IMG/VR virus record: IMGVR_UViG_3300045988_149572
Length of the DNA stretch: 64,000 nucleotides
Reading direction: 5' to 3' (one strand)
From: a virus
This document shows positions 1 through 52,899 of this stretch, one piece after another. Numbering within the stretch: position 1 is the stretch's first letter; each line of letters opens with the position of its first letter. Position numbers and translations under genes: made by a program. Under the pieces are notes generated by a model, which made no database searches, was not told the origin of the DNA, and saw only the letters and a program-made list of their open reading frames with translations.

Positions 1-3000
1 ACAATGAAGAACGAAAATGGCGAGACCATAGTCGTCGGTGTAGATGTGAAGAACGTAGGTCGTGATATGGAGGTGAATGCCATATCAACGATATTCGGAA
101 GGCGAGGTGACGCTAAAAAGACACAGAAAGAGGATGTGCTATATACCGCTGAAAACATTACTCCCGAACAGCGGTCACTTCTCGGTCAGCCCAATTCTGA
201 CCAATATACCGGCGTTCGGGAGAGAAACGTTTCCACCGACAAAGGTAGCGAAAAGGCAGAGAAGAAGCAAAAGAAGCAGAGCGTTTTTGACAAGGCTAAG
301 GAGATTGCCGACAAGGAGGAGAAGAAACGCAAGGCTGAGGACAACTCGGTGCTCGGTCAAGCGACAAGAGCCGTGGGCAAGAAAAAGAAGGTCAACCTGT
401 TCAAATATACGGCTTCAGAAAAAAACAGCAATTCTGCGCTGAGAGGAGTGCATTATGCCAACGGCTATGCGTATGCTTCTGATGGATACATCCTCTTCAA
501 GGAGAAAGCGGACTATCCCAAAGAGTGGGAAGGTACGACCAGAGACAAGGACGGCAATCTGATTGACGGGAAATATCCGGACGCGGAAAAGGCAATACCC
601 AGATTGGTTCACATCCCCGACAAGGAGGTTGAGTCGTTGCCGTCAAAGGAGGTGCTTGACTTCGCCATCGCTGCAAGCAAGAAGTTGAAAGGAGAGGCAA
701 TACCTGTCGCAATTGACGGATTGTTCTTTAATGCAGTCAATCTGAAGAAGTTTCTTGAAGCGGTTGCATCCAAAGGAATGGACAAGGTTGTATACAGGCA
801 TCCTATGTTGTATGCCACCAACGGCAAGGATGAGATTGTAATGATGCCTACAGTGAATACATTGGAGGGCGCATTGGATATTGCCGACAGGATGGAAAGC
901 GCAGGTTTGCCCAAAGAGCAGATTGATGCGTGGAAGGCACACATTGAAGCCGCTGATAAGAAAATGTCGTTTGAGGACTTCAAAAAAGCCGTTGAAAACG
1001 CCAAGAAGGAAGGTGTCAGACCTACGGAAGCTGACAAGCAGGAGAGTAAGGCGGAGGCTGAGAAGCAGAAAGTTGACAAGCAGGGGAATCCAATTGACGC
1101 TGAAGGCAGACTGATAACTGAGAAAGTTGAAGACATCAGCGATTTGTCGGACGATGATTTCAACAATCCGAAACGTTCTGTGGAATTGCCTAAGATACCG
1201 AAGAATATAGATAACGCTCTCGGTGCGAACGGCAAGCCTGTTATTATCAAGAAGAATATATTCGAACGGAACAAGAACGCTCATTCAGACTTAACGGCAG
1301 AGCAGAGCCGAGAAATACTTAAAACAGCGCTGTACTCGGCTGATTTGTATGCTAAGAACCAAAAATCCAAGCGCCCGTTCAATTGGGTAATTATCAAAAC
1401 AAAAGACCACGATGGTAAAAACAAACTTGTTCTCTTGGAAGTTAACGACAACAAGGACAATGTGGAAATTGTGCATTGGCACTATCTTGATGACCGAGGC
1501 CTTGAAAAAATAAAAAAGCAAGCCGAACGTGAGGGCGGGCAACTCCTCATACTGCCTTCCGAAAAAGAAGAGGCTGGCGCCCTTTCCAGCCGTACATCCG
1601 ACTTGCCTGCTGACAAAGGTAGCGAAGTCGGAGGAGAAAAGCAAGAGGCTGAGAAAAAAAGACCCGCTCCGCTATCGGAGCGGATAGAAGATGTCGGAGA
1701 GAAGATTGGCGATGCGAGGAAGGATGTCTGGAAGGAAATAATTGCCAGGATCAAGAATAAAAAACAAGGGATTGAAGAAGCGTTGAAGAAGAGCTCTGCG
1801 GGCAAGCTGTTCTCTTCGTTGTTTGACGAGAAGGAGTTGCTTGAAAGCGGTGTGTCGAATGAGGTTGTGACATTCATCTCAGCGGTAAAGGGCAGTCTTG
1901 GAACGAAACCGAGGTCTTTGTCCAAATTAAAGATGTGGATCAATAAAGTATTGCACCAATATGATATGTGCGAACAGGCATTGGAGAATTGGGAATCCGT
2001 CAAGAAGAAGATTGACGAATGGAAGTACTATAGCCAACCGTTCTATATGTACCGCGCGGCAATGGCAGTCGGAGGATATGAAAGTGGACGTGATGTAGGC
2101 AACGCCGAATTGTGGCAGATTGCTGACGGGTATAGTGATGGAAAGTCCGTAGCCGGGCAATGGTGTGTCCGTAAAGCTGGAGCCTATGATGGAATTTATA
2201 AGACTTACGAGGAAGCAGCCGAGGCTCTGAAGAAATTCGCAGGAGAGAACGCTGCGGTTGACGGCAAAGGGAAACGCAAGGAAGTGAAACTTGCGATATA
2301 CAAAAGGCGGACGGACGGCACTATGTTCATAGCTCCAGAAGGAAAGCCGGATGTGATAATTCAGGATGGATTCAAGACTTTATACGAAGCATCTGCATAT
2401 AAGAAGGAGCATTATGCAGAGATGCAGGAGCGTTATCGGACGTTGATGGATGGCATCAAACCGAAATTCAACGAGAACAGGGAGCGCAAAGGGCGTGACT
2501 GGCGCGGCGGCAAGGATGTGTCGGCGGAGGATTTCCGGGAAGCGTTTGACTTCCGAGGAGTGGAGTTCGGCAACTGGATGCAGCAGAAGGACAGACACCA
2601 GGCGTTGAACGAATGCTACGACTCTCTTATGGACTTGGCGATGGTCTGTGGAGTGTCGCCGAAGGCGTTGTCGCTTGGAGGGAAGTTGGCAATGGCATTC
2701 GGTGCGAGAGGAGGTGGAAAATTCAACGCTCATTACGAGCCGGATAAGGTTGTGATAAACCTTACAAAGACCAAAGGTGCAGGAAGCCTTGCGCACGAAT
2801 GGTTCCACGCCATTGACAATTATTTCAATATGCAAGGTTGGGACGAATTTGCCACAGAAAGCACGCGGAACGTTGAACGCAAGGAAATGGCTGAAGCGTG
2901 GAAGGATTTGGTGCGTGCGATAAACGGAAGTGATTATTTCAAGCGGTCAGACAAATACGCCCGTCTTAAAGGCTCCAGATATTGGATTGAACCGACTGAG

Positions 3001-6000
3001 CTTGGAGCGAGAGCGTTTGCGGTGTGGGTTGAGAACAGACTGTCGAAGTACGGCACGATAAACGACTATCTCGCCAACAATCCACGTCTAGTGGATGAGA
3101 AGGCAAGCGACGCAGAAAAGAAATATGCACCGTACCCATTCGACAAGGACGCTGACTGGATGGACGAGAAATTCGGCAGGTTGTTCGAGGTGATGCAGGA
3201 GCGTGTCGACGAGGAGACAGGTAAGCACATTCTGTACAGCAGAAATAAAGCTGCCGGGCACGAGAAGACGGAGTTGACAGCGGAGGAGCGGGAACTGAGG
3301 GACAACCTTGTGGAGCGTATGCGCAAGGGTGGACTTGACGTGGTGACTGATTCGGAAGAGATGCAAAGAGTCATAGACACCGAGAACGAGCGGACAAGGA
3401 TGATGGGTGCCGGTTCAGTCCGTGAGCATCGTGTGTACCACGGCAGCGGAGCGGACTTCGATGCTTTCGACCACTCGCATATGGGCGAGGGAGAAGGTGC
3501 GCAGGCTTACGGCTGGGGTACTTATGTGACCGAGGTGGAAGGCATCGGCAGGACGTATGCTATTCAGAATACAACGAAGCACAACGATGCTTTACGTGCA
3601 TTGCAACACGATGTAGATGCTATATCTGACCAACTTAACAGACACCGGGATGATTTGAAGTATGACGAAGAGCAGTTAAAACGTGCTAACGAATGGAGAG
3701 CCGAGGCAGAGCTTGACTATGAATTGTTCAAAGATGAAGCTGAGGAATTAAAGGAAAAATATGGAGAGTCTTCTCCTAAATACCGAAATCATCTGTTTAA
3801 TGACATCTATACAGATGAAATGAAACGTGCTCAAAGTTCAGTTAAGAGTATGGAAGAGTCAATCCAGTATCGCAAGGAGAAAATCGCAGAGCTGGAAAAG
3901 GCATTAAAGGATAAGCAAGCGGAGATTGATGAACTGCCGAAGGAGTTTCCACGCCACCTTTACACTGTAGAAATCCCCGATGACAACGGCAGCAACTATC
4001 TGGATTGGAATGGCCACCCTGCTGAATCTTTACTGAAAGATGTAGGTTCGTTTTTGGAGAGTGAAGGCTTTGAGAGGGTACAGGATAACCCTGTCAGATA
4101 TGAGAAAGGCGAAAGCACCGTTGTTTTGAACCCAAATGCGACTGGAGCTGATTTGTATGCGGAATTGCGTGAGGTTCTTGGCAGCGACAAGAAAGCGTCA
4201 CAAGCATTGGCAGAGTTAGGCTGTATTGGCATCAAATATCCTGCTGACAATATGCGTGGTGGCCGTGAGGATGGCGCAAAGAACTACGTTATCTTCAACG
4301 AGAATGATGCGAAGATAACCGACCATACACGCTTTCTGCGTACTGCGGACGGAGAGGTGTACGGCTTGGTGAAGGACGGACGCATATACCTTGACCCAAA
4401 GGTGGCTACAGCGGAGACTGCGGTACACGAATACACGCATCTGTGGGGCGATATGCTGAGGCGCAAGGACTCCGAGCAATGGAGCCACACGGTGAAGGAA
4501 CTGAAGAACAGCGTTCTTTGGGAGGAAGTGAAGGAGTTGTATCCGGAGCTGAAGACCGATGACGAGATAGCGGACGAAGTGTTGTCGACGTTCAGCGGAC
4601 GCAGAGGAGCGGAACGCTTGCGCGAGGAGGCACGCAGGGTTGCCGATGGCGAGGGCGGAGTGTTCACAAAGGCGAAGGCTATCGAGACGTTGGAGCGAGT
4701 GAAGGAAGCCATAGCGCGGTTCTGGGAAGGCGTGGCGAGGATGTTCGGCATCAACCGCTACCGCAGTGCCGAGGAGTTGGCTGATATGGCAATGAAGGAC
4801 TTGCTTGATGGTGTAGACCCAAGAAAGATGGGTAACAACGAGAAAGGCATTGGATTCAGTGCAAAACAAAAAAGAGCACTTGAAACCGTAACGATGGCAG
4901 ACAAATCCACCAATAAAGCCACTGCCATTTCAAGTGCTGATGGCGCAAAGGTACAAAATAATCTTGAAATACTTGCTGAAAGCTACAACAATCGTTCCAA
5001 TAAAACCAAAGGGTTCATAACGGACTTGTCTCAAGCTCTAAACTTGGAGCGACATGAAGCAAGTCATTATGGTACATTTGAGACGCAGAAAGGTAAGTTG
5101 GTTACTATCCGTGTGAGCAATCACAATGCACGTGTTTCATTATTTGACAAGAATGGCGAGAATGATGGCATTAGTATTGTTATATCAAATCATAAGAACA
5201 AGGGACTTTTGAACGATGGCAATGCCCATATTATAGAATTCTTCTACTCCAAACAATCACTTCAAAGAGCCGATGGTAAACCATTGTCGGATATAATCCG
5301 TTCTGTTTCCGAAGTTTTGTATAGTGGTGAGTTTAAGGACACGACAGGTCTTGCTGAGCGGCAGGAGGTGAACGGTGATGATGTGATTCGCTTCCAGTTC
5401 ATCGGTGAGAAGGGTGCTGCGGAAGCCGACCATGCCGAGGAGGTTTTTGCAAACGAAAATGTAGAGCGCAGTGTAAGAGAGAATCCTAAAAGCGAGGAGC
5501 CACGCTTCAGCAGAAAGCCGGGCGAGAGCATCTTCGACTATGCGTCACGTGTGTCGGAAGACGGCTTGCTATTCCGAGATGGTGGTACTGAGTACGATTT
5601 CCCAGGCGAAGACGACGCTCAGAAACTTTACAACGCTGCGGTTGACGGCAGAAAGTCGAGGGCAATAGAATCGTGGCAGGATGAGATGTTCCCCGTGAAG
5701 ATGCTCCAAGAGGCGATTGAGAAAGCCACGGGCGAGAAGATAGCCGACTTCGAGAACGCATATCTGTTAGAGAATCAACTCGGCTCGGCAGGAAACGCAA
5801 CGTTGGAGAAGTATGCGAGAGAGGTTCAGAATCCAATGCGCAAGGTGTATCTTGACATGCTCAAAGCCAAGTTTGATGGAGGGAGCAAAGTTACAAAGTC
5901 GGACATCAACAAGTATGTGATAGCGGTTCACGGATTGGAACGCAATAAGTATATGGCGGATAAGAACAAGGGGTTGCCCGATGCTCGCAGGGACTATTCC

Positions 6001-8685
6001 GGTTTTACCGCATTGTTCGGCAATGGAGAGCAAGTAGAGGTTGAAGAACTTGAACGTAGAGCGGAAGAATATATCGGGAAGTTTGAGGATGCAGTGGGTA
6101 AAGACAAAGCGGATAAGCTATGGTCGCTTGTGGATGAATCAAGACAACGCACGTTGGACGAACTTGTGAGGTCAGGCTTGGTAAGCGGCGATGTCGCAGA
6201 TGAATGGTTGCGTCGCTTCGAGCACTATGTCCCGTTGCAAGGCTTCTCAGAGGAGGTTATAGGAGAGGACAGAAACGCTAATTTCGAAAACCACATCACG
6301 GGGCGTATGTCCGAGGCAAGAGACCCTTTGGCAACACTCGTGAATATGGAGTATGTTGCTGTAACGAGCGGCAATCACAACAGAGTGAAACAGGCTCTTT
6401 ACAACCTTGCGCTCAACCATAGAACAAACCTTCTCTCTGTAATGCCGATGTTCTCTGTAAAGAATCCAATTACTGGTGAATGGGAGGATGCGGTTCCGCA
6501 GATTGATGAAACGATGTCACCGATTGAGAGACAACGGGAGGTTGATAAGTTTATCAAGCAGATGCGCGTACGTATGCGCGAGGAGAAAGACCTTCCAGAA
6601 TCGGACAAAACTGTCAAGGATGCAAGAAAGGTAAGCGTTGGTAGTAAAGTATTGCCTAAAGCTATGCCAGACTTTATTGTGAGGATGAAAGTCAACGGCA
6701 GACAATATGCGGTTGTCCTCAATGGCAATCCAAGAGCTGCGCAGGCTATAAATGGACGGTTGAAGGAACACCCCAACAAGGCATTGCAGAAGATAAGCGG
6801 AGTGACGAGGTTTATGTCAGCTGCGGTTACTGCTTGGAATGCTGCGTTTATGTTAAGCAACTTTGCAAGGGATGTGCAAGCGGCGAACGCTTTTGCTTAT
6901 TCCAACGAGGGAGCAAAATATGCGGCTATGATGGATGCTGAAATCCATAAAAATATGTCGTTGACTTCATTGGGCAGAGATTTGTTTGGGATGAAAAATA
7001 AAGGTATTTATAAGTTATATTATAAATACAGACACAATCAGCTTGACATGAGTAATGAACGGGAAAGATTCTTCAAAGAGTTTGTTGACAATGGAGGTGA
7101 GACCGGGTACACACAGATGGTTGACATTGATAAAATCGCCAAACAGATGCAGAAAGATGAATTTTCTGCAATCAAAGCGATTAAATCGGTCGGCAAGTTC
7201 ATTGAATTGGCAAACAAGGGCTTTGAGAACGCGACACGTTTCGCAGCGTATGCAACAAGCCGAAAAATGGGTAAGTCTGTTATGCAGAGCATTAACGACG
7301 CAAAAGAGATAAGCGTCAATTTCAACAGACACGGAAATGGGCGGAACGGATATGTCATCGCCAAATCGTTGTATCAATTCTTGAATCCTACAATACAAGG
7401 ATTGGAGAAACAATTGCGTACAATAAAAGAACACCCATTAGAGGGCACAGCCGTGTTAATTGCGACACCGATTGCAATAGGATTTGCCATCCCGCTTGTA
7501 AATATCGGATTGGCTATGTTGTCGGGCGGAGGTGACGATGACAAAAAATACTATTGGTCACTTAGCGATTGGACACGCAGAAACAATCTCATTATTGGTG
7601 TGAATGGTAAATTTATAAAAATTCCGTTGCCACCAGAGTTGAGGGTGTTTTATGGAATTGGAGAGATGATTGCGTCGAAGATGAGCAACCCATATGACAA
7701 GACGAATCTTTTGACTGAAATCCCGAAGCATATCAGTGAAACATTGCCGTTCAATGACACAAACAGTACATTTCCATCGTTTGTTAAACCATTTATTGAA
7801 TCAGAGGTTACAGACAAGGATTTTATGGGCAGAAAGATTACTGGGCGTTCTGACTATAACACCCAAGACCCGGAATGGAAACGGGCGGGCTACAACACAG
7901 ACGATGAGTATATAGCCGCCGCCAAATGGTGGCACAGCCTGTTTACCGACAACGACAATGAGAGAGGCTCGTGGTTTGCGGAAATCAACCCATCAGTAGC
8001 AGAACATCTTATCAAGGGTTATACAGGAGGAATTGGAAGTATAGTAGGACAAGTGTACACAACGGTAAAGGCAATAGCCAAAGGCAATGAAAAAGATTAT
8101 TCTGATTCAAGAAATTGGCCTATTGTCAACAGAGTTTATGTCCAGACCACCAAAGAAGATGCAGTGAAAAAAACTACAAATACCGCTTATCGTTTCTATC
8201 AAGACAATTACAAAAACTATGAGCATACGTTTAAAGAAACTCTTAAAGATGAAAAATCCGGTATATTCCAAAAGGCTCAAAGAATTTCAAATATGGTTGA
8301 GACTTCGGAATACAAGCGGTACAGAATGACAGAGCCATTTATAAAAGCAGACAAACTTCTTTGGGATGAAATAAAGGCACTCAAAGAGACAGATGACAAA
8401 GAATCGCTTGAGTGGATTGAAAAAGAACAGACTCGGCTTAGGAGTGTTCTTGTAGAAGCCTCTGAAAAATTTGATATTTATGACAACGCAGGACTTACGT
8501 ACAAACTGGACAGAATGTCAAAGCCAGGTGCTTATAAATCGGATTTGAAGATTGATGTAAAATCAGCACCAAATAAGGATATGCGTAAATTCGCAAAAGA
8601 GTACAATGTCAAGATCGGCAAATACAAACAACAAACCTATAAAGATGAACAAGAAATAAAGAAACATATTCGTGTTAATAAATAA
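1..8685 (+). CDS. giant polyvalent (multi-domain, virion-delivered type) protein, C-terminal >2890 aa; 5' end lies outside the window
   Basis: One frame open from base 1 (ACA precedes the first ATG at 4) to the stop at 8683-8685. HExxH zincin motifs HEWFH (2794-2808) and HEYTH (4426-4440). A YHGSGADFDAFD ... NYVIFNEND block (about 3430-4310) resembles the ART-like module of polyvalent proteins. Clamp-like RGVHYANGYAYASDGYILF near 450-510. Hydrophobic segment about 7444-7530. Sits directly upstream of the portal gene. Confidence 0.8.
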   Translation, partial: TMKNENGETIVVGVDVKNVGRDMEVNAISTIFGRRGDAKKTQKEDVLYTAENITPEQRSLLGQPNSDQYTGVRERNVSTDKGSEKAEKKQKKQSVFDKAKEIADKEEKKRKAEDNSVLGQATRAVGKKKKVNLFKYTASEKNSNSALRGVHYANGYAYASDGYILFKEKADYPKEWEGTTRDKDGNLIDGKYPDAEKAIPRLVHIPDKEVESLPSKEVLDFAIAASKKLKGEAIPVAIDGLFFNAVNLKKFLEAVASKGMDKVVYRHPMLYATNGKDEIVMMPTVNTLEGALDIADRMESAGLPKEQIDAWKAHIEAADKKMSFEDFKKAVENAKKEGVRPTEADKQESKAEAEKQKVDKQGNPIDAEGRLITEKVEDISDLSDDDFNNPKRSVELPKIPKNIDNALGANGKPVIIKKNIFERNKNAHSDLTAEQSREILKTALYSADLYAKNQKSKRPFNWVIIKTKDHDGKNKLVLLEVNDNKDNVEIVHWHYLDDRGLEKIKKQAEREGGQLLILPSEKEEAGALSSRTSDLPADKGSEVGGEKQEAEKKRPAPLSERIEDVGEKIGDARKDVWKEIIARIKNKKQGIEEALKKSSAGKLFSSLFDEKELLESGVSNEVVTFISAVKGSLGTKPRSLSKLKMWINKVLHQYDMCEQALENWESVKKKIDEWKYYSQPFYMYRAAMAVGGYESGRDVGNAELWQIADGYSDGKSVAGQWCVRKAGAYDGIYKTYEEAAEALKKFAGENAAVDGKGKRKEVKLAIYKRRTDGTMFIAPEGKPDVIIQDGFKTLYEASAYKKEHYAEMQERYRTLMDGIKPKFNENRERKGRDWRGGKDVSAEDFREAFDFRGVEFGNWMQQKDRHQALNECYDSLMDLAMVCGVSPKALSLGGKLAMAFGARGGGKFNAHYEPDKVVINLTKTKGAGSLAHEWFHAIDNYFNMQGWDEFATESTRNVERKEMAEAWKDLVRAINGSDYFKRSDKYARLKGSRYWIEPTELGARAFAVWVENRLSKYGTINDYLANNPRLVDEKASDAEKKYAPYPFDKDADWMDEKFGRLFEVMQERVDEETGKHILYSRNKAAGHEKTELTAEERELRDNLVERMRKGGLDVVTDSEEMQRVIDTENERTRMMGAGSVREHRVYHGSGADFDAFDHSHMGEGEGAQAYGWGTYVTEVEGIGRTYAIQNTTKHNDALRALQHDVDAISDQLNRHRDDLKYDEEQLKRANEWRAEAELDYELFKDEAEELKEKYGESSPKYRNHLFNDIYTDEMKRAQSSVKSMEESIQYRKEKIAELEKALKDKQAEIDELPKEFPRHLYTVEIPDDNGSNYLDWNGHPAESLLKDVGSFLESEGFERVQDNPVRYEKGESTVVLNPNATGADLYAELREVLGSDKKASQALAELGCIGIKYPADNMRGGREDGAKNYVIFNENDAKITDHTRFLRTADGEVYGLVKDGRIYLDPKVATAETAVHEYTHLWGDMLRRKDSEQWSHTVKELKNSVLWEEVKELYPELKTDDEIADEVLSTFSGRRGAERLREEARRVADGEGGVFTKAKAIETLERVKEAIARFWEGVARMFGINRYRSAEELADMAMKDLLDGVDPRKMGNNEKGIGFSAKQKRALETVTMADKSTNKATAISSADGAKVQNNLEILAESYNNRSNKTKGFITDLSQALNLERHEASHYGTFETQKGKLVTIRVSNHNARVSLFDKNGENDGISIVISNHKNKGLLNDGNAHIIEFFYSKQSLQRADGKPLSDIIRSVSEVLYSGEFKDTTGLAERQEVNGDDVIRFQFIGEKGAAEADHAEEVFANENVERSVRENPKSEEPRFSRKPGESIFDYASRVSEDGLLFRDGGTEYDFPGEDDAQKLYNAAVDGRKSRAIESWQDEMFPVKMLQEAIEKATGEKIADFENAYLLENQLGSAGNATLEKYAREVQNPMRKVYLDMLKAKFDGGSKVTKSDINKYVIAVHGLERNKYMADKNKGLPDARRDYSGFTALFGNGEQVEVEELERRAEEYIGKFEDAVGKDKADKLWSLVDESRQRTLDELVRSGLVSGDVADEWLRRFEHYVPLQGFSEEVIGEDRNANFENHITGRMSEARDPLATLVNMEYVAVTSGNHNRVKQALYNLALNHRTNLLSVMPMFSVKNPITGEWEDAVPQIDETMSPIERQREVDKFIKQMRVRMREEKDLPESDKTVKDARKVSVGSKVLPKAMPDFIVRMKVNGRQYAVVLNGNPRAAQAINGRLKEHPNKALQKISGVTRFMSAAVTAWNAAFMLSNFARDVQAANAFAYSNEGAKYAAMMDAEIHKNMSLTSLGRDLFGMKNKGIYKLYYKYRHNQLDMSNERERFFKEFVDNGGETGYTQMVDIDKIAKQMQKDEFSAIKAIKSVGKFIELANKGFENATRFAAYATSRKMGKSVMQSINDAKEISVNFNRHGNGRNGYVIAKSLYQFLNPTIQGLEKQLRTIKEHPLEGTAVLIATPIAIGFAIPLVNIGLAMLSGGGDDDKKYYWSLSDWTRRNNLIIGVNGKFIKIPLPPELRVFYGIGEMIASKMSNPYDKTNLLTEIPKHISETLPFNDTNSTFPSFVKPFIESEVTDKDFMGRKITGRSDYNTQDPEWKRAGYNTDDEYIAAAKWWHSLFTDNDNERGSWFAEINPSVAEHLIKGYTGGIGSIVGQVYTTVKAIAKGNEKDYSDSRNWPIVNRVYVQTTKEDAVKKTTNTAYRFYQDNYKNYEHTFKETLKDEKSGIFQKAQRISNMVETSEYKRYRMTEPFIKADKLLWDEIKALKETDDKESLEWIEKEQTRLRSVLVEASEKFDIYDNAGLTYKLDRMSKPGAYKSDLKIDVKSAPNKDMRKFAKEYNVKIGKYKQQTYKDEQEIKKHIRVNK

Positions 8686-48007: not shown

Positions 48008-48316
48008 TTAGAATGGAAGATCGTCGGAGGAGGCAGACGGAGCCGCCTCAATCTGTTCAGTGGTCGGTTGGCTTGGCATAGGCTTCAGCTCCGAGAAGTC
48101 GCCTATGTAGAGGTTCTCGCCCTCCACCTGCTGGTCTTTCGGTACGCTTACTTTCATAGAATGGGTGTATGTGCGCTCTCCGAATGTGGAGGGCGTCTTG
48201 CGCTCCCATAGACCGACATTGAGGAATATGTGTTCTGTGCCGTCCTTGCACATTACTTTTTTGAAAAATCTCTTTGGGACTTTGGTTAAGTCGATTGATC
48301 CAGTGTAGTTGCTCAT
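48008..48316 (-). CDS. SSB-like protein with acidic DDLPF tail
   Basis: C-terminal SSDDLPF mimics the SSB protein-interaction tip. Lies between the recombination genes. Confidence 0.5.
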   Translation of the reverse strand: MSNYTGSIDLTKVPKRFFKKVMCKDGTEHIFLNVGLWERKTPSTFGERTYTHSMKVSVPKDQQVEGENLYIGDFSELKPMPSQPTTEQIEAAPSASSDDLPF

Positions 48317-49209
48317 AATGATGTAATTCTTATTGATGATTTGACTTTGGTTGTTTTGATGTAATTCTTGTAGGATTCAGGATGTTCCTCTTTGAACCTC
48401 TTGGCGTCGAATGTTTCTTTGGTGGAAGGCTCAATGTAGGTAAGCCGCATATTGTCGGTTTCCCATTTCTTCACTCCAGCCTTCTCCATCTCGCCCTTCA
48501 TCCGCTCAGAGAACGTCTTCACCTGCTTCTCTATCTCTTTTTTCCTAGCAAGTAGGTCAAGAATCTGCATCTCCATAGCCTTGTAGCGGTCGGGCAACGT
48601 GTTGACGCTCGGAAGTGGGTTGACGAATTGCCGTCCTTCCACCTCGGCGGCGAGGAGAGAGTCAATCACGCCGTCAGGAATGCGCTGTACCTCCGTTATT
48701 TTAGCCTTGTCACCGCGGAGCCAGATAGCAAGCAGACCGACAACCTTACAGCCTGGGTTCTGCCGCTCGAAGAATGTGGCGTAGATGGACAGTTGCCAAC
48801 GTACCTTGTCCTCGTTGAGATTACGCACGGTCTTGATGTCGCCGAGGATATACTCCGTTTCGGAGACTTTGAACACCTTGTCAATAGGAGACGCAAAGTG
48901 CTCGTTGTCGCTGACAACGTACTCGGATTCACACGGAACGTAGCCGCCCTCCTTGATTAGCCGTTGGTAATTGACCACTTCTGGAATATCCTCGAAAGTA
49001 GTGCCGAAGTCGTCGCAGAACTCCACTTGTGCGTGGATTGCACTGCCACGCTCGGCTGCGGCCTTCAGCGTCTCTTCGTCAACCCCGGCATATTCATCGG
49101 GAAACAATTGCCGTTGGAGCATCCCAGTGATGCCCTGCAACGCCCTCCCGTCGGGCGCGGTATAGGTATGCCCGACGGGGTCAAATACAATTTCAGAATA
49201 TCTCAACAT
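48313..49209 (-). CDS. PD-(D/E)XK family exonuclease (recombination exonuclease)
   Basis: GSAIHAQVE ... SPIDKVF ... LGDIKT pattern. Partner of the adjacent annealase. Confidence 0.6.
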   Translation of the reverse strand: MLRYSEIVFDPVGHTYTAPDGRALQGITGMLQRQLFPDEYAGVDEETLKAAAERGSAIHAQVEFCDDFGTTFEDIPEVVNYQRLIKEGGYVPCESEYVVSDNEHFASPIDKVFKVSETEYILGDIKTVRNLNEDKVRWQLSIYATFFERQNPGCKVVGLLAIWLRGDKAKITEVQRIPDGVIDSLLAAEVEGRQFVNPLPSVNTLPDRYKAMEMQILDLLARKKEIEKQVKTFSERMKGEMEKAGVKKWETDNMRLTYIEPSTKETFDAKRFKEEHPESYKNYIKTTKVKSSIRITSL

Positions 49210-49210
49210 A

Positions 49211-49831
49211 TTAGCCTTGTTTTAGTTGTTGTTTTCTTTGGGAACAAGCGGTGATTACCGCTTCGTCCTTGCCGAAGTAATAAGAGTTCTTCTTATATAT
49301 CGCAACGACTTCCTCCTCGGTCTGTGCGGCATACACCGCCGCTATTACTGCCGCCTTGTCAGGAGCAGGAATAGCGGGTGCTGGAGCAGTCGCCTTTGCC
49401 TTGCCTGAGCCCTTCGAGGTTGCCGTGTACTCCTTGCCGTTGTTCAAAGTGTCGGCATCCTTTGTGTCGTCGATAGCAAGCAAGCCGTTGAGCGCGTATT
49501 TTCGTGCATAGGAGGATGCGGCACCCGTCACTTGGCTGCCGTCCATTCCTTTTTTTGTCGCTTCCTCACGGGCGAAAGCCTGGTTGGATAGCGACCGTTC
49601 TCCGTCAGTCAGCGTTGCGGTTGCCTTGACGTAAAATCTGTCACCAAGCACCACGATATCATCGGTGATGGTTAGAAATAGCCCCTCGGCTTTGAGGAGA
49701 GGCTTGACCGCCTCGAGGATGTCCTCGCAGTTGCGGTAATTGTAGCCGCCGAAGTTGTTCCGTTGATTCTTCGGTGCTTTGAGTTGTGATTGCACAGCAA
49801 TCACACGCTCGGTGAATGTCTTGTCTGCCAT
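49211..49831 (-). CDS. erf: ERF-family single-strand annealing protein
   Basis: FGGYNYRNCEDILEAVKPLL and GAASSYARKYALNGLLAI. Start taken at MADKTF (49831), because the longer track ORF overlaps the upstream gene. Confidence 0.75.
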   Translation of the reverse strand: MADKTFTERVIAVQSQLKAPKNQRNNFGGYNYRNCEDILEAVKPLLKAEGLFLTITDDIVVLGDRFYVKATATLTDGERSLSNQAFAREEATKKGMDGSQVTGAASSYARKYALNGLLAIDDTKDADTLNNGKEYTATSKGSGKAKATAPAPAIPAPDKAAVIAAVYAAQTEEEVVAIYKKNSYYFGKDEAVITACSQRKQQLKQG

Positions 49832-49833
49832 AT

Positions 49834-50016
49834 CTATATAAGTTTTCTGTCTGTTAGCATACATAAGATTTTCAGGGAGGCGAGGAACGATGCCAACGCC
49901 CCAGCCTTGATGAGAGTGAACGGCAATAGTGCCGCACTCTCGTCCTCGTTGCATAGGAGGACGATGCTGACTCCCATCCACACGGTCATCAGCAGGTAGA
50001 TGATTAGTTTCTTCAT
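49834..50016 (-). CDS. small membrane protein
   Basis: 60 aa from MKKLIIYLLM, with two hydrophobic helices. Confidence 0.4.
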   Translation of the reverse strand: MKKLIIYLLMTVWMGVSIVLLCNEDESAALLPFTLIKAGALASFLASLKILCMLTDRKLI

Positions 50017-50113
50017 ATATTTTGTTTTTTTATAATTGTCTGATAAAAAGGAGACTATCCTCACAGACCGCCTCCCGAAAAAAACGTTGTCAATAAATGA
50101 TACGAAAGTAGTA

Positions 50114-50207
50114 GTCGGCTCGGAGGTATCGAACCTCGCCCCGGTCGTAGAGAATTGGATAAGAAGTTGTTAATAATTACCGACCGAAGCCTACCAGTGC
50201 GAGCCGT
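50114..50207 (-). ncRNA. tRNA-like element A (non-canonical; no anticodon arm found)
   Basis: RNA sense: ACGGCTC-GC-ACTG/GTAGGCTT/CGGT ... CGAGG-TTCGATA-CCTCC-GAGCCGA-C. Six of 7 acceptor pairs form. A CGGTCG/CGACCG stem closes a 31-nt loop. Confidence 0.4.
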
Positions 50208-50271
50208 GATGCCTCCCATATCCTCACGGACGGAGAGGCGATGAAATCTCAATCGTTAAAAAGAATGTAAG

Positions 50272-50382
50272 TGGCAGAGGGGGGAATCGAACCCCCTGTG
50301 AAAAACAATTATCAACTAAACTCAATTACTAAACTCAATCATACTCTACTAAATGGGAAATGCGGAACCACCGCGCTCTGCC
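50272..50382 (-). ncRNA. tRNA-like element B (non-canonical)
   Basis: RNA sense: GGCAGAG-C-GCGG/TGGTT/CCGC, a ~54-nt C-free insert with AUUGAGUUUAGU x2, then GGGGG-TTCGATT-CCCCC-CTCTGCC-A. The 7-bp acceptor is perfect. Confidence 0.5.
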
Positions 50383-50453
50383 TTGTCCTCCTGCGCCCGT
50401 CACGGGTTTGGAGGGAAAATTATGAGTAAAAGTTGCTTTAATAAAGGGAATAG

Positions 50454-50499
50454 GAGCGGTGGGAGGACTCGAACCTCCCCTCGGCACCTTGCCACCGCT
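50454..50499 (-). ncRNA. tRNA-like minihelix C (acceptor plus T arm only)
   Basis: RNA sense: AGCGGTG, a 14-nt linker, then GGAGG-TTCGAGT-CCTCC-CACCGCT-C. All 12 stem pairs are Watson-Crick. Confidence 0.5.
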
Positions 50500-50738
50500 C
50501 GGAATATATAGAGTGAGCAGTCAATTGCTCTGTAAGGAGTGCTGCTCGTTGGTTGGTTGTATACACTGCGGCGTCATAGGCTCGCCGCGTAGCCCCAGCA
50601 CCTGTTGCATAGTCGGTGCTGACCACATCCGCAACGCCAACTCACACACTCGGCTGGAATGCTTATTGTGTGCGACTCGTTGCGGTCGTTATGCTTGTTG
50701 TCAATACGTCAATGTGCTTTTGCCTCTAAGAGGCGTTG

Positions 50739-50781
50739 TAGGCAGGATGAGAATCGAACCCATCCGTATACCATACTGCCT
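50739..50781 (-). ncRNA. tRNA-like minihelix D (acceptor plus T arm only)
   Basis: RNA sense: AGGCAGT, an 11-nt linker, then ATGGG-TTCGATT-CTCAT-CCTGCCT-A. Begins at the last base of the upstream stop codon. Confidence 0.4.
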
Positions 50782-51272
50782 TATTCGTAGATGAATGCGT
50801 CGGAGCATTCGTGCCCGACCAAATCACAGAACTCCTGTGCTTCTTTAAGAAGGTGCGTATATGTGGGGCCGTCCAATATCGGCGAGATTGCCCACTCGCC
50901 GGAGATGTAGCGGTTGCACTCGACCAACAAGCGGTAGGTCTTACCGTCTACGCCTGTCACCTTAGTAGTGACCTCCGCATCTTGTTCGGCATCTTGTTCG
51001 GCTTTCGCTATTGCTTCCTTGCATTGTCGGATAACATCGTTCAGCGATTCACTCTTGATTCCTATCGGCTTGCGGTCTTCGAGAATCTTGATGTTCTCCT
51101 CGTATTCATCCGCCCATTCAATCAAGGCTTTGGCGGCTTCCTTGTCTGCTTCTCTCACTTTCGACAAGCTCTCACGGAGAGCCGCTTCAGCAGCTTTGTA
51201 GGCTTCGAGCCGCTTCGCCCAGATAGCAGGGCGGTATATACGTCTTACGTCTTCTTCCATATCTATGACCAT
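50781..51272 (-). CDS. hypothetical protein
   Basis: 163-aa ORF with a helical acidic middle region. Confidence 0.55.
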   Translation of the reverse strand: MVIDMEEDVRRIYRPAIWAKRLEAYKAAEAALRESLSKVREADKEAAKALIEWADEYEENIKILEDRKPIGIKSESLNDVIRQCKEAIAKAEQDAEQDAEVTTKVTGVDGKTYRLLVECNRYISGEWAISPILDGPTYTHLLKEAQEFCDLVGHECSDAFIYE

Positions 51273-51625
51273 TCACAAGTGTTGGTATATCCGTTGATGG
51301 CTTCGTCAAGGTCGCCTTCATTCTCTATCTCCACGTCGCCCAACTCACCATCGCAGGCGGTAATGTCAACGATGCTGATTCCATAGGCGTCCTCTCCATA
51401 CTCCGGCTCTGTGTAGGTCGCCGCGTGGTAATGCCTGTTCTCAGCCCACATATTGTAGAATACGGAGATGACTAAGCCGTTTATCTCTGTCCAAAACTCC
51501 CATTTTTCGTAGGGATAGGAGAATGCGTCCGAATAGTTCTCGTCAATCTCTTTTTTGAAATCTTTCGCGATTTGCGCGATGTCCGCTTTGCTCAGTAGGA
51601 CTCTCTTTAATTTTTTTGTCTGCAT
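51263..51625 (-). CDS. hypothetical acidic protein
   Basis: 120-aa ORF. Confidence 0.5.
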   Translation of the reverse strand: MQTKKLKRVLLSKADIAQIAKDFKKEIDENYSDAFSYPYEKWEFWTEINGLVISVFYNMWAENRHYHAATYTEPEYGEDAYGISIVDITACDGELGDVEIENEGDLDEAINGYTNTCEWS

Positions 51626-51647: not shown

Positions 51648-51941
51648 TTAATTATGACTGAACACCTTGTCAAGGTCGCTCTTCTTGATTCTGATTACGT
51701 TGCCGTTCCGTCCTGCGTGGAGCCATCCACCGCGTATGCGGTTGTGGATTGTTCCCACGCTGACGCCCACATATTCGGCAGCCTCCTTGATGGTGAGCAG
51801 AGCGTCTTCCTCCTGCGGTTTGACCGCCTCAAGCAGGCATTCTCCCCAAGCGAGGAAAGCCTGTCGCAGTTGTTCGGTGGTCACCGATATGGTGACGTTC
51901 TGACCGGACTGTATGATGCTGTTGATGTCAAGCGTGTTCAT
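51648..51941 (-). CDS. excisionase-family / MerR-like HTH DNA-binding protein
   Basis: LLTIKEAAEYVGVSVGTIHNRIRGGWLHAGRNGNVIRIKKSDL. Start taken at the ATGA overlap. Confidence 0.6.
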   Translation of the reverse strand: MNTLDINSIIQSGQNVTISVTTEQLRQAFLAWGECLLEAVKPQEEDALLTIKEAAEYVGVSVGTIHNRIRGGWLHAGRNGNVIRIKKSDLDKVFSHN

Positions 51942-52138
51942 TTCAGTCTGATTGCGTGTGTTGCCAACTCGTGGTTCACTTGCCACACCTTATACTTCGC
52001 TTCGCCCCGGACATTGATGGCGTAGGCTGCCGCGCGCACTGTGCTGGAGGATGTCTGCCTATAAGGGAAAACCATCTCTTCGCCCACCTGTAGAGCTTTC
52101 AAAGTTTCTGTTACGTTGATTTTTTTTATAATTTTCAT
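51938..52138 (-). CDS. hypothetical protein, first gene of the leftward early operon
   Basis: 66-aa ORF facing the repressor gene across a 160-bp control region. Confidence 0.4.
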   Translation of the reverse strand: MKIIKKINVTETLKALQVGEEMVFPYRQTSSSTVRAAAYAINVRGEAKYKVWQVNHELATHAIRLK

Positions 52139-52224
52139 TGTTATGTTGTTTTATATTAGTACTTTTGCACCGTTGTTTTGTGTTTGGCGGTGGTTTTGTT
52201 CTAAACACATTGCAAAGATAACCG

Positions 52225-52248
52225 AATATTGGGTGTACACCAAATATT
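52225..52248. promoter_or_regulatory. candidate operator (24-bp near-palindrome)
   Basis: AATATTgGGTGTACACCaAATATT: 22 of 24 positions are symmetric. Lies between the divergent repressor and early genes. Confidence 0.45.
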
Positions 52249-52299
52249 TCACCAAAAATATTATTCATAACTTAGTTAAAAAGTGTTACATCGGTATCA

Positions 52300-52899
52300 A
52301 TGAATGGATTAGACATAAAGAATTTGCGCCTAAAATTAGGTGTTACGCAGAGGGAACTCGCTGAGATGGTCGGAGTGTCAGAGAAGACCGTGCAAAATTG
52401 GGAGTATGGCAAGCCTATTCCGACTACGAAACACCAAATTTTACGGACTATTCAGTCTGGGGTAGAGGAGAATGTAAGCACGGAAGATATTAATCAGCGC
52501 ATTAGAAAGGTGTTGAAAGATAAAGATTTATCTGTTGCAGCCTTTAGTAGGGAAGCGGGAATAGAGCAAACGACATTGAATAGGCAACTGAATGGTGGAA
52601 GTAAGGTGTCTGTTGGAACCATCAAGGCTTTTCTCCTTAAATTTAAGGACATTTCCGCAGAATGGCTTCTGCGCGGTGTAGGCGATATGTGCTGTGGCGT
52701 CCCAGACGAACAGCTCGAACGTGAGATAGCGGAGGAGACAGGTCGTGTGCAGAGCATCGGCGACAATTCCAACCACAACACGCAGACAATGACGGATTCC
52801 GCCATTGCCAAGGAGAATGAGATGCTAAGGAAGAGTATCGAGGAGAAGAACGAGGAAATCAAGTTCCTCCGCTCCTTAATCCAAAGAAATGCAGACTAA
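52300..52899 (+). CDS. CI-like repressor with two HTH modules and a C-terminal coiled coil
   Basis: LRLKLGVTQRELAEMVGVSEKTVQNWE (XRE HTH). Second module AAFSREAGIEQTTLNRQLNG ... SAEWLLRGVG. No Ser-Lys peptidase domain. Confidence 0.7.
   Translation: MNGLDIKNLRLKLGVTQRELAEMVGVSEKTVQNWEYGKPIPTTKHQILRTIQSGVEENVSTEDINQRIRKVLKDKDLSVAAFSREAGIEQTTLNRQLNGGSKVSVGTIKAFLLKFKDISAEWLLRGVGDMCCGVPDEQLEREIAEETGRVQSIGDNSNHNTQTMTDSAIAKENEMLRKSIEEKNEEIKFLRSLIQRNAD

Follow-up and report, generated by a model that had tools for sequence, protein, structure and literature searches.

We analysed a 64,000-nucleotide stretch of viral DNA (IMG/VR record IMGVR_UViG_3300045988_149572; hereafter, the window), which is the genome of a temperate, lambda-like siphovirus of the Bacteroides/Phocaeicola type from the gut, and which carries in its early operon a gap of about 0.7 kb (positions 50,114 to 50,781) occupied by an array of four tRNA-like modules. 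The gap is non-coding and modular, is read from the strand of the surrounding genes, and is under purifying selection at the level of RNA structure. With a probability of about one half, we take it to be a co-transcribed, tRNA-punctuated non-coding RNA operon, whose transcript would be processed by the tRNA-maturation enzymes of the host (RNase P, RNase Z, and the CCA-adding enzyme). Since the anticodon arm is lost or replaced in each module, the products would not take part in decoding.

Anatomy of the array

The four modules, called D, C, B, and A in their order along the minus strand, lie between 50781 and 50115. Each has an acceptor stem stacked on a UUCRANY T arm, and none has an anticodon arm (5-bp stem, 7-nt loop, and U33). 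The earlier note on this DNA had described four such minus-strand modules with T-loops, in none of which an anticodon arm could be folded, and this is borne out by our reading of the sequence and by a mechanical search for acceptor stem plus T arm; the search recovers D, C, and B, and module A escapes it solely through a C.C mismatch in the T stem. In its strict form, the search gives one match per 1.09 Mb of shuffled sequence (both strands), and in a looser form ~2.9 matches per shuffled window. In D and in B, the acceptor/T stack is 12 bp long; C has 13 bp, and A has 10 bp apart from the mismatch. As a description, the term tRNA mimics used in that note is apt, the top half being kept and the anticodon arm being absent or replaced.

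Modules D and C are bare minihelices with linkers of 11-14 nt. In module D (50740-50781, minus strand), a 5-bp acceptor-like stem (AGGCA/UGCCU) is stacked on a 7-bp T stem (GGAUGGG/CUCAUCC, with one G.U pair) closed by the T-loop UUCGAUU; the linker has 11 nt (GUAUGGUAUAC), and a D-arm-like hairpin (GUAU-GGU-AUAC) is present, one pair of which is broken in 14 of the 31 genomes compared below. The previous assignment of D as a minihelix holds, with the division of its helix corrected to 5 + 7 bp. The first base of D falls within the stop codon of the upstream gene, and its 3' end, CAUCCUGCCUA, with the discriminator A at 50739, is followed in the genome by CAA. Module C (50454-50500, minus strand) consists of GAGCGGU(G)/(C)ACCGCUC, a mini hairpin (GGCA-AGG-UGCC), and the T arm GGAGG-UUCGAGU-CCUCC, the stack being divided as 8 + 5 (or 7 + 6) bp; its 3' end is CCACCGCUCC or CCACCGCUC, and the next genomic bases are UAU. 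The 238-nt spacer between D and C (50501-50738, minus strand; hereafter, RNA X) is GC-richer, almost invariant, and predicted to adopt a multi-hairpin fold (minimum free energy, -77.7 kcal/mol; z = -2.7), in which the spacer hairpins listed in the earlier note are present. RNA X has no match in Rfam at E up to 10, and two indels among relatives, one of 1 nt and one of a 15-nt hairpin, exclude a coding function.

Modules B and A are framed like tRNAs and show other sequences in place of the anticodon arm. Module B (50273-50382, minus strand) has a 7-bp acceptor stem (GGCAGAG/CUCUGCC), a D-like hairpin (GCGG-UGGUU-CCGC), a central payload of ~65 nt, and the T arm GGGGG-UUCGAUU-CCCCC, with the discriminator A at 50272 and the 3' end CCUCUGCCA (next genomic bases, CUU). 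The payload includes a 54-nt C-free insert (50354-50301) made of AGU-containing units with a tandem AUUGAGUUUAGU; both the D-like hairpin and this insert had been recognised before and are found unchanged here. Module A (50116-50206, minus strand) has a 6-bp acceptor stem (CGGCUC/GAGCCG), a 9-bp central stem with two U.G pairs (50189-50181 with 50147-50139) that closes an AU-rich loop of 33 nt, in which the core AUUAUUAACA is conserved, and a T stem of 4 bp (GAGG/CCUC) plus the C.C mismatch, with the T-loop UUCGAUA and the 3' end CCGAGCCGA (next genomic bases, CUA). Here the lack of an anticodon arm stands, and the details first given are corrected to a 9-bp stem and a 33-nt loop, in place of 6 bp and 31 nt. 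Each of the two modules is preceded by a nested hairpin, namely pre-B (50387-50414, minus strand; CCUCC ... CCC-GUGA(C)-GGG ... GGAGG) and pre-A (50211-50239, minus strand; GCCUCUCC G UCC-GUGA-GGA UAU GGGAGGC). Folding of single sequences reproduces the acceptor, D-like, and T helices of B, and gives a matching cloverleaf-like layout for the modules of relatives; in A, the central stem and the T hairpin are found and the acceptor stem is missed.

Standard software returned no ordinary tRNA in the window. ARAGORN found no tRNA or transfer-messenger RNA (tmRNA) gene in the 64 kb by default and no tRNA with introns allowed; intron-bearing tRNAs were rejected for the relatives as well, where the calls were inconsistent or spurious (e.g., a 'tRNA-Pyl' running from D to C with a 222-nt intron). 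No Rfam family matched the window at its gathering score, and the tRNA model (RF00005) gave no match even at E up to 10. At E up to 10, the only matches lay below the cut-offs: module C was aligned over the full length of the mascRNA-menRNA model (RF01684; 23.4 bits; E = 0.05; cut-off, 42.5), and the 17-nt T arm of module B was aligned with tmRNA models (14.5-14.8 bits; cut-offs, 47-84), such T-arm fragments being the sole Rfam matches to tmRNA. As had been stated previously, the gap holds no credible protein-coding sequence: its two long open reading frames (ORFs; 50459-50794, plus strand, and 50438-50626, minus strand) are low-complexity and Cys/Arg-rich, and are interrupted in relatives by a 1-nt indel and a 70-nt insert.

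Conservation and rearrangement among relatives

A search with the exonuclease protein of the operon gave 15 close IMG/VR contigs (83-98% amino-acid identity), and a DNA pattern of module C gave 15 human-gut metagenome contigs, several of them ~62-63 kb long. The order D, X, C, pre-B, B, pre-A, A, and terminator is kept in all 31 genomes compared. Over a 5-kb region compared in 14 close genomes, conservation is highest in the gap, with a nucleotide diversity of 0.010-0.018 in RNA X and 0.03-0.05 in most of the array, and 0.09-0.29 in the flanking genes; hypervariable parts of the gap are limited to three spacers (C-to-B, B-to-A, and post-A). Module D is present in every genome, with the T-loop variants UUCGAUU, UUCAAUU, and UUCGAGU, and the G.U pair of its T stem in the window is G-C in 29 of the 31. 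T-loop polymorphisms found in at least four genomes are confined to positions 4, 6, and 7, corresponding to tRNA positions 57, 59, and 60, which are variable in real tRNAs too.

The stems are conserved among the 31 genomes, and compensatory changes are seen in several of them. In the pre-B hairpin, the inner stem CCC/GGG becomes UCC/GGA (C-G to U-A) in 6-8 genomes (T in 8 cases and A in 6 in the two alignment columns, and 7 sequences listed with the change), and the T stem of module B changes from GGGGG/CCCCC to GCAGG/CCUGC, with two compensatory pairs, in three (L004, L011, and L118). In the pre-A hairpin, the loop is GUGA or GCGA (both GNRA), the pair 5:24 is U.G or C-G, and 100% of the alignment cells are paired; the GUGA/GCGA alternation is common to the three GNRA-type hairpins. 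A diverged module A is found in L120, L122, L126, and L129, which retain the loop core and have an acceptor pair changed from U-A to A-U, three two-sided changes in the central stem (U-A to A-U, U.G to G.U, and U.G to G-C), and two further central pairs changed from G-C to G.U; in L119, an A-U pair of the T stem of module A is G-C. Over the 26 distinct sequences of module A, 99.6% of the cells pair and five pairs are altered on both sides, and all slid registers collapse; none of 500 shuffles matched the percentage paired or the covariation score, and one matched the number of two-sided pairs, counts that serve as a control and are not to be taken as a probability. When we mapped the variable columns of RNA X onto its predicted fold, three stem substitutions (one from A-U to G.U, two from C-G to U.G) kept the pair as a wobble, and two broke pairs (a terminal C-to-A in eight genomes and a singleton U-to-A). 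Several helices contain G.U pairs, which form only on this strand as RNA, in keeping with selection on structure at the RNA level. The earlier suggestion of a decayed tRNA array is refuted by the conservation of the gap, the compensatory or wobble-keeping changes in the stems, and the tRNA-like variation of the T-loops.

The array is also rearranged module by module. Ten of the 31 genomes carry a 51-nt element (E) and a second T arm inside module C, and in L007 and L014 a deletion joins the 5' half of C via E to the T arm and 3' half of B. A contig from ERZ1034917 (L123) has a tandem duplication from the 3' half of C to the 5' half of A, produced when the T arm of A crossed over with that of C. 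The 13-nt repeat of module B is present in 1.5, 2, or 3 copies (three in L125 and 1.5 in five genomes). To judge from these junctions, the T arms act as recombination points, or hot spots, within the array. Independent gain, loss, duplication, and swapping, seen in genomes that are nearly identical otherwise, fit separate modules better than one rigid fold.

Outside this group, blastn found no homologue of the gap in GenBank phages, the exact pattern of the 5' end of B found in IMG/VR only the 13 contigs already known, and the exact pattern of RNA X was absent from 185,579 GTDB species genomes. The exonuclease of isolated B. fragilis phages is 38% identical, and phage B40-8 is without such a module. 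A profile of the exonuclease gave 65 further contigs (44-50% identity), to which the gap had no blastn match. In these distant relatives, the strict search detected 77 elements on the gene strand and none on the opposite strand, 76 of them intergenic, compared with one in shuffled sequences. The one-strand bias, together with the G.U-containing helices described above, argues for an RNA rather than an element acting at the DNA level. By acceptor sequence, the 77 elements form ~20 groups, and their central regions span 10-161 nt; some, with Leu-like D arms and large inserts, score above the Rfam tRNA threshold, and others are bare minihelices. ARAGORN, run by default on the 65 contigs, gave no tRNA with a standard anticodon loop, its calls there being aberrant, either with an anticodon loop of 8 nt or as a 71-nt form that lacks U33 and has an anticodon stem of 4 bp. 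One isolate prophage relative was found, in Phocaeicola plebeius, with an exonuclease of 48% identity.

Two kinds of elements in the distant relatives are described here as separate observations. The gap of L085 (1744-1990) contains strict runs of 11 and 5 NNAGU pentamers (the second ~13 by eye), each block being followed by a bare acceptor/T-arm minihelix, and the payload of module B (50354-50301) is made of similar AGU units. NAG triplets with 2-nt spacers have a periodicity that is bound by ring-shaped RNA-binding proteins. We rejected (NNAGU)n as a general feature, as strict runs occur in L085 alone and C-free stretches are common in these AT-rich genomes. In L093 (6552-6694) and L063 (7374-7515), tRNA-framed RNAs of 143-144 nt have the acceptor GGGGAUG/CAUCUCC and a 112-nt central domain; they carry G3:U70 and A73, the alanine identity set, and might be charged by alanyl-tRNA synthetase.

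Proposed maturation and alternative explanations

A Bacteroides-type promoter consensus (-33 TTTG and -7 TATCTTTG; 52213-52255, minus strand) lies next to the repressor gene, ~1.4 kb upstream of the gap, and is the likely start of the early operon, array included; no such box, strict or relaxed, is found within 50000-50900. At the end of the array, before an ORF for a small membrane protein, is a terminator-like hairpin (50045-50075, minus strand; GGAGGC ... GUCUCC followed by UUUUU), which was skipped by a simple terminator scan because its loop is longer than 8 nt, and which is kept in relatives with alternation of GUGA/GCGA and of U.G/C-G. With a promoter upstream, none inside, and a hairpin plus U5 at the end, the array is most simply the distal part of the early transcript.

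In the maturation that we propose, the early (lytic) minus-strand transcript would start at the repressor-adjacent promoter and end at the hairpin and U5 (50075-50045). The modules appear to keep those parts that the enzymes recognise, i.e., an acceptor/T stack of ~12-13 bp, a T-loop, and, where the D arm would be, a small hairpin containing GG. It is established that RNase P, RNase Z, and CCA-adding enzymes accept minihelices made of an acceptor stem and a T arm. RNase P would cut on the 5' side of each module, RNase Z would cut 3' of the discriminator base (50739, 50453, 50272, and 50115), and the CCA-adding enzyme would complete the 3' ends. Thereby, the bare minihelices D and C would bracket and release the 238-nt RNA X, and the tRNA-framed B and A would display their payloads in the place of the anticodon arm, in B the C-free AGU repeat and in A the 33-nt AU-rich loop. 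The same cuts would also split the upstream regulatory mRNA from the mRNA of the recombination genes. We infer these steps from established substrate rules. A role in trans is suggested more weakly still; in view of the accessory position in the early operon, it would most likely be host take-over or anti-defence. It is possible, and put forward here only tentatively, that temperate Bacteroides/Phocaeicola phages, and perhaps many others, encode a whole class of tRNA-framed non-decoding RNAs that has not been described (bare minihelices, double-T-arm modules, and tRNA bodies with payloads of 10-160 nt in place of the anticodon arm), matured early in infection by host enzymes, in which the products of the four-module operon of the window would sponge or redirect a host factor, for example a defence enzyme directed at acceptor ends or a multimeric RNA-binding protein.

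Several observations weigh against the tRNA-punctuated operon. A CCA is encoded after none of the four modules, as the earlier note had said, and the geometry is uneven, with just four Watson-Crick pairs plus the C.C mismatch in the T stem of A, 6 bp in its acceptor stem, and a 13-bp stack in C. The acceptor halves of the chimeric module in L007 and L014 cannot pair, suggesting that B and C are dispensable or that those genomes are defective. The covariation stems from few independent events (~5-6 lineages among the 31 close genomes), and RNA X varies too little to inform on its fold. No RNA-processing or RNA-binding gene was detected among the ~50 ORFs of the window scanned, and no target or partner was found for the RNAs of the array. 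A 14-nt exact complement of the A loop at 39391-39378 (gene strand) was considered as an antisense target and rejected as a coincidence; the site is altered at synonymous positions in 10 of the 19 loci recovered, including some with the same A loop (e.g., L005, L008, and L010-L013). Likewise rejected was a kissing interaction between the A loop and the B insert (AAUUAU..CAACU with AGUUGAUAAUU, noticed by eye), in which the base in B is U in 23 of the 31 genomes and A shows no corresponding change.

Four other explanations were weighed and, in our ranking, follow the tRNA-punctuated operon in the order given here. The first, which we regard as unlikely, is that the RNAs serve as decoys or sponges: CCA-tipped top halves would mimic the acceptor end or elbow of tRNA and titrate an anticodon-independent host factor, such as an enzyme that processes or modifies tRNAs, or a toxin of a defence system that acts on acceptor ends by modification or cleavage, and the AGU repeats of B and the loop of A would sponge an RNA-binding protein. 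Such a role would agree with the conservation of the top half alone, the anticodon region being deleted or freely replaced, with the presence of several modules per transcript at an accessory site of the early operon, flanked by the immunity region and the recombination genes, and with the variable repeat number in B (1.5-3) and the NNAGU runs adjoining two bare minihelices in L085. However, no candidate target was identified, neither an Sm-like WYL_2 gene nor an RNA-binding gene stands beside the array in the window, and the strict pentamer runs are restricted to that one relative. A decoy function is, moreover, compatible with the tRNA-punctuated operon and would require the same processing.

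We give a smaller chance to a single ornate, unprocessed RNA of ~720 nt, of a size comparable to GOLLD or ROOL, in which the four T-loops and the three GNRA-type hairpins would make tertiary contacts. The segment is contiguous, highly conserved, and rich in hairpins, with recurring T-loops and GNRA-type tetraloops, and the large structured non-coding RNAs GOLLD and ROOL of prophages are often situated near tRNAs (PMC5737381). Nevertheless, neither of these models matches the window at the gathering score or at E up to 10, and folding of the gap as a whole gains little over shuffles (z = -2.2). The insertion of E in 10 of 31 genomes, the duplication in L123, the deletion in L007 and L014, the repeat changes, and the hypervariable spacers mark the region as modular and rearranging, in contrast to GOLLD and ROOL; the idea in the earlier note that the modules are tiles of one large RNA is weakened by the independent module swaps and hypervariable spacers.

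Pure punctuation in cis is improbable also, at a slightly lower level. In that case, RNase P and RNase Z cleavage together with stability signals would uncouple the regulatory genes from the recombination and replication genes, and the excised RNAs would be functionless. tRNA-like processing signals are known in the mRNAs of mitochondria, in MALAT1, and in some bacterial operons, and this arrangement would account for module D abutting the upstream stop codon, for the terminator-like hairpin preceding the next genes, and for the lack of an own promoter. A single module would suffice for that purpose, however, and RNA X, the core of the A loop, and the B payload are conserved beyond what cleavage signals need. 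Lastly, we consider it effectively excluded that the gap is a non-functional remainder of a tRNA array or of recombination, or a set of DNA elements (att copies, iterons, or an origin): the T arms as recombination points, the integrase of a temperate phage, the tandem repeats of B, and the frequency of orphan T-arm hairpins in viral contigs could be cited for it, but the diversity of the gap is the lowest over 5 kb, its compensatory or G.U-preserving changes make sense for one RNA strand only, the strand bias in relatives is 77 to 0, and the integrase is 20 kb away.

Genomic setting, known RNAs, and wider meaning

The array belongs to a minus-strand operon that is divergent from the gene of a CI-like double-HTH repressor (52300-52899, plus strand; assigned from domain hits). 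Upstream of the gap, the operon encodes an HTH_17 protein (51648-51986), a protein annotated without a function (51263-51625), and, directly before module D, a 163-aa protein with no function assigned (50781-51272). Directly after the terminator-like hairpin come the ORF for a 60-aa two-helix membrane protein (49834-50016), Erf (49211-49954), and a RecE-like exonuclease (48313-49209), all on the minus strand, and beyond the exonuclease gene the operon encodes NinB, a Holliday-junction resolvase, a replisome organiser, and DnaB. The 60-aa membrane ORF is as conserved as the array (diversity, ~0.02), and a comparable small membrane ORF lies downstream of the homologous gap in L018. Elsewhere, the window encodes a portal protein, a terminase, and an integrase (29354-30643), the last of which is 20 kb from the gap. 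Further features of the phage genome are an inserted IS110-family transposase gene (DEDD_Tnp_IS110 + Transposase_20; 36289-37350, minus strand), an ORF of 2893 aa with no function assigned at the start of the window (4-8685, plus strand), and, adjoining the integrase gene, a gene for an 895-aa protein of phrog_32516, a PHROG family without a known role (30929-33616, minus strand).

Elements with T arms that are not tRNAs seem to be common in viral contigs and little described. Two T arms 33-63 nt apart were found in at least 120 IMG/VR contigs (L153-L272) from many environments, and in one sample of 240 T arms from viral contigs, 123 were orphans without an acceptor partner. Minihelices were observed between canonical tRNAs in arrays of 12-27 tRNAs (L159, L162, and L164), and two T arms under one acceptor stem in L155, L166, L172, and L176; the mini hairpin UAUGGUAU is common to module D of the window, L172, and L176. 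A survey of the virome lists generic 'tRNA or tRNA-like' candidates only (PMC10690425).

Among known RNAs of Bacteroides-type phages, the array can be compared with DUF2693-FD (Rfam RF02926; Weinberg et al. 2017), a small-RNA candidate of ~49 nt with unknown function. In many of the distant relatives, DUF2693-FD (69-76 bits; e.g., L043:1950-1998) takes the place of module D: it comes first behind the stop codon of a gene weakly similar to the 163-aa gene, and it lies upstream of Erf and the exonuclease, as the array does in the window. Its topology of a 7-bp stem, a mini hairpin, a 5-bp stem, and a 7-nt loop abutting the 3' strand resembles those of C and D, and its consensus can be read as an anticodon-less tRNA top half with a non-T-loop. 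It differs in the loop (AGCGAGA), in occurring singly and not in an array, and in having a gene for WYL_2 (Sm-like; formerly DUF2693) two ORFs upstream, whereas no WYL_2 domain is found in the ORFs upstream of the array in the window; nor does its model match the window even at E up to 10 (threshold, 44.5 bits). The aberrant tRNAs of Phocaeicola and Bacteroides prophages are syntenic with B and have the acceptor GGCAGA../..UCUGCCA in common with it, but they form a full cloverleaf (45-54 bits on the Rfam tRNA model) with 8-nt anticodon loops called 'gggt' or 'ggtt'. Aberrant tRNAs with these loops, or with the 4-bp anticodon stem that lacks U33, were observed at L018:4849-4925, L043:2849-2925, L040:6871-6945, and L151:1848-1922 (the Phocaeicola plebeius prophage), and could be quadruplet decoders or non-decoding RNAs.

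Further afield, the modules resemble the vertebrate mascRNA and menRNA (RF01684; from MALAT1 and NEAT1), which also have an acceptor stem, a D-like hairpin, a T arm, and a stunted anticodon arm. RNase P and RNase Z cut mascRNA out of a longer transcript, and it then receives CCA. These RNAs are nuclear and without homology to the array, so that only the shape and the proposed processing logic are shared. In the tRNA-miRNA units of murine gammaherpesvirus 68, the stable species 1 and 2 RNAs from the tRNA cluster of phage T4, and the engineered tRNA scaffold, a tRNA-like body recruits host processing and stabilises or releases a non-decoding RNA. The scaffold holds its cargo in the place of the anticodon arm, as modules A and B do; none of the three is from Bacteroides-type phages, and none has a four-module array that brackets a 238-nt RNA. 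The bacterial Y RNA YrlA has a tRNA-like domain joined to a Ro-binding helix, in which both RNA ends are located, and a Ro60 (rsr) gene nearby. The array is unlike it, with no Rfam match and the opposite topology, the RNA ends of the modules lying in the acceptor stems; no TROVE/Ro domain was detected among the ORFs scanned against Pfam, a scan that covered only part of the ORFs.

tRNA-like non-decoding RNAs are already known, e.g., mascRNA, viral tRNA-like structures, the herpesviral tRNA-miRNA units, and DUF2693-FD. In the literature, we found no report of four anticodon-less modules arrayed in the early operon of a phage and bracketing a conserved 238-nt RNA, or of a clade-wide replacement of the anticodon arm. 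Codon usage or escape from anticodon nucleases is the usual explanation for the tRNA genes of phages; the tRNA-shaped genes of this clade conserve the half that is recognised in processing and have discarded or replaced the half that decodes. If matured as proposed, the array would stand as the natural equivalent to the engineered tRNA scaffold and to tRNA-punctuated RNA arrays, and would give a function-directed handle on the orphan DUF2693-FD and on tRNA-like candidates in viromes. It could also lead to a factor or defence of the host by which the acceptor ends or elbows of tRNAs are recognised in one of the most abundant groups of gut bacteria.

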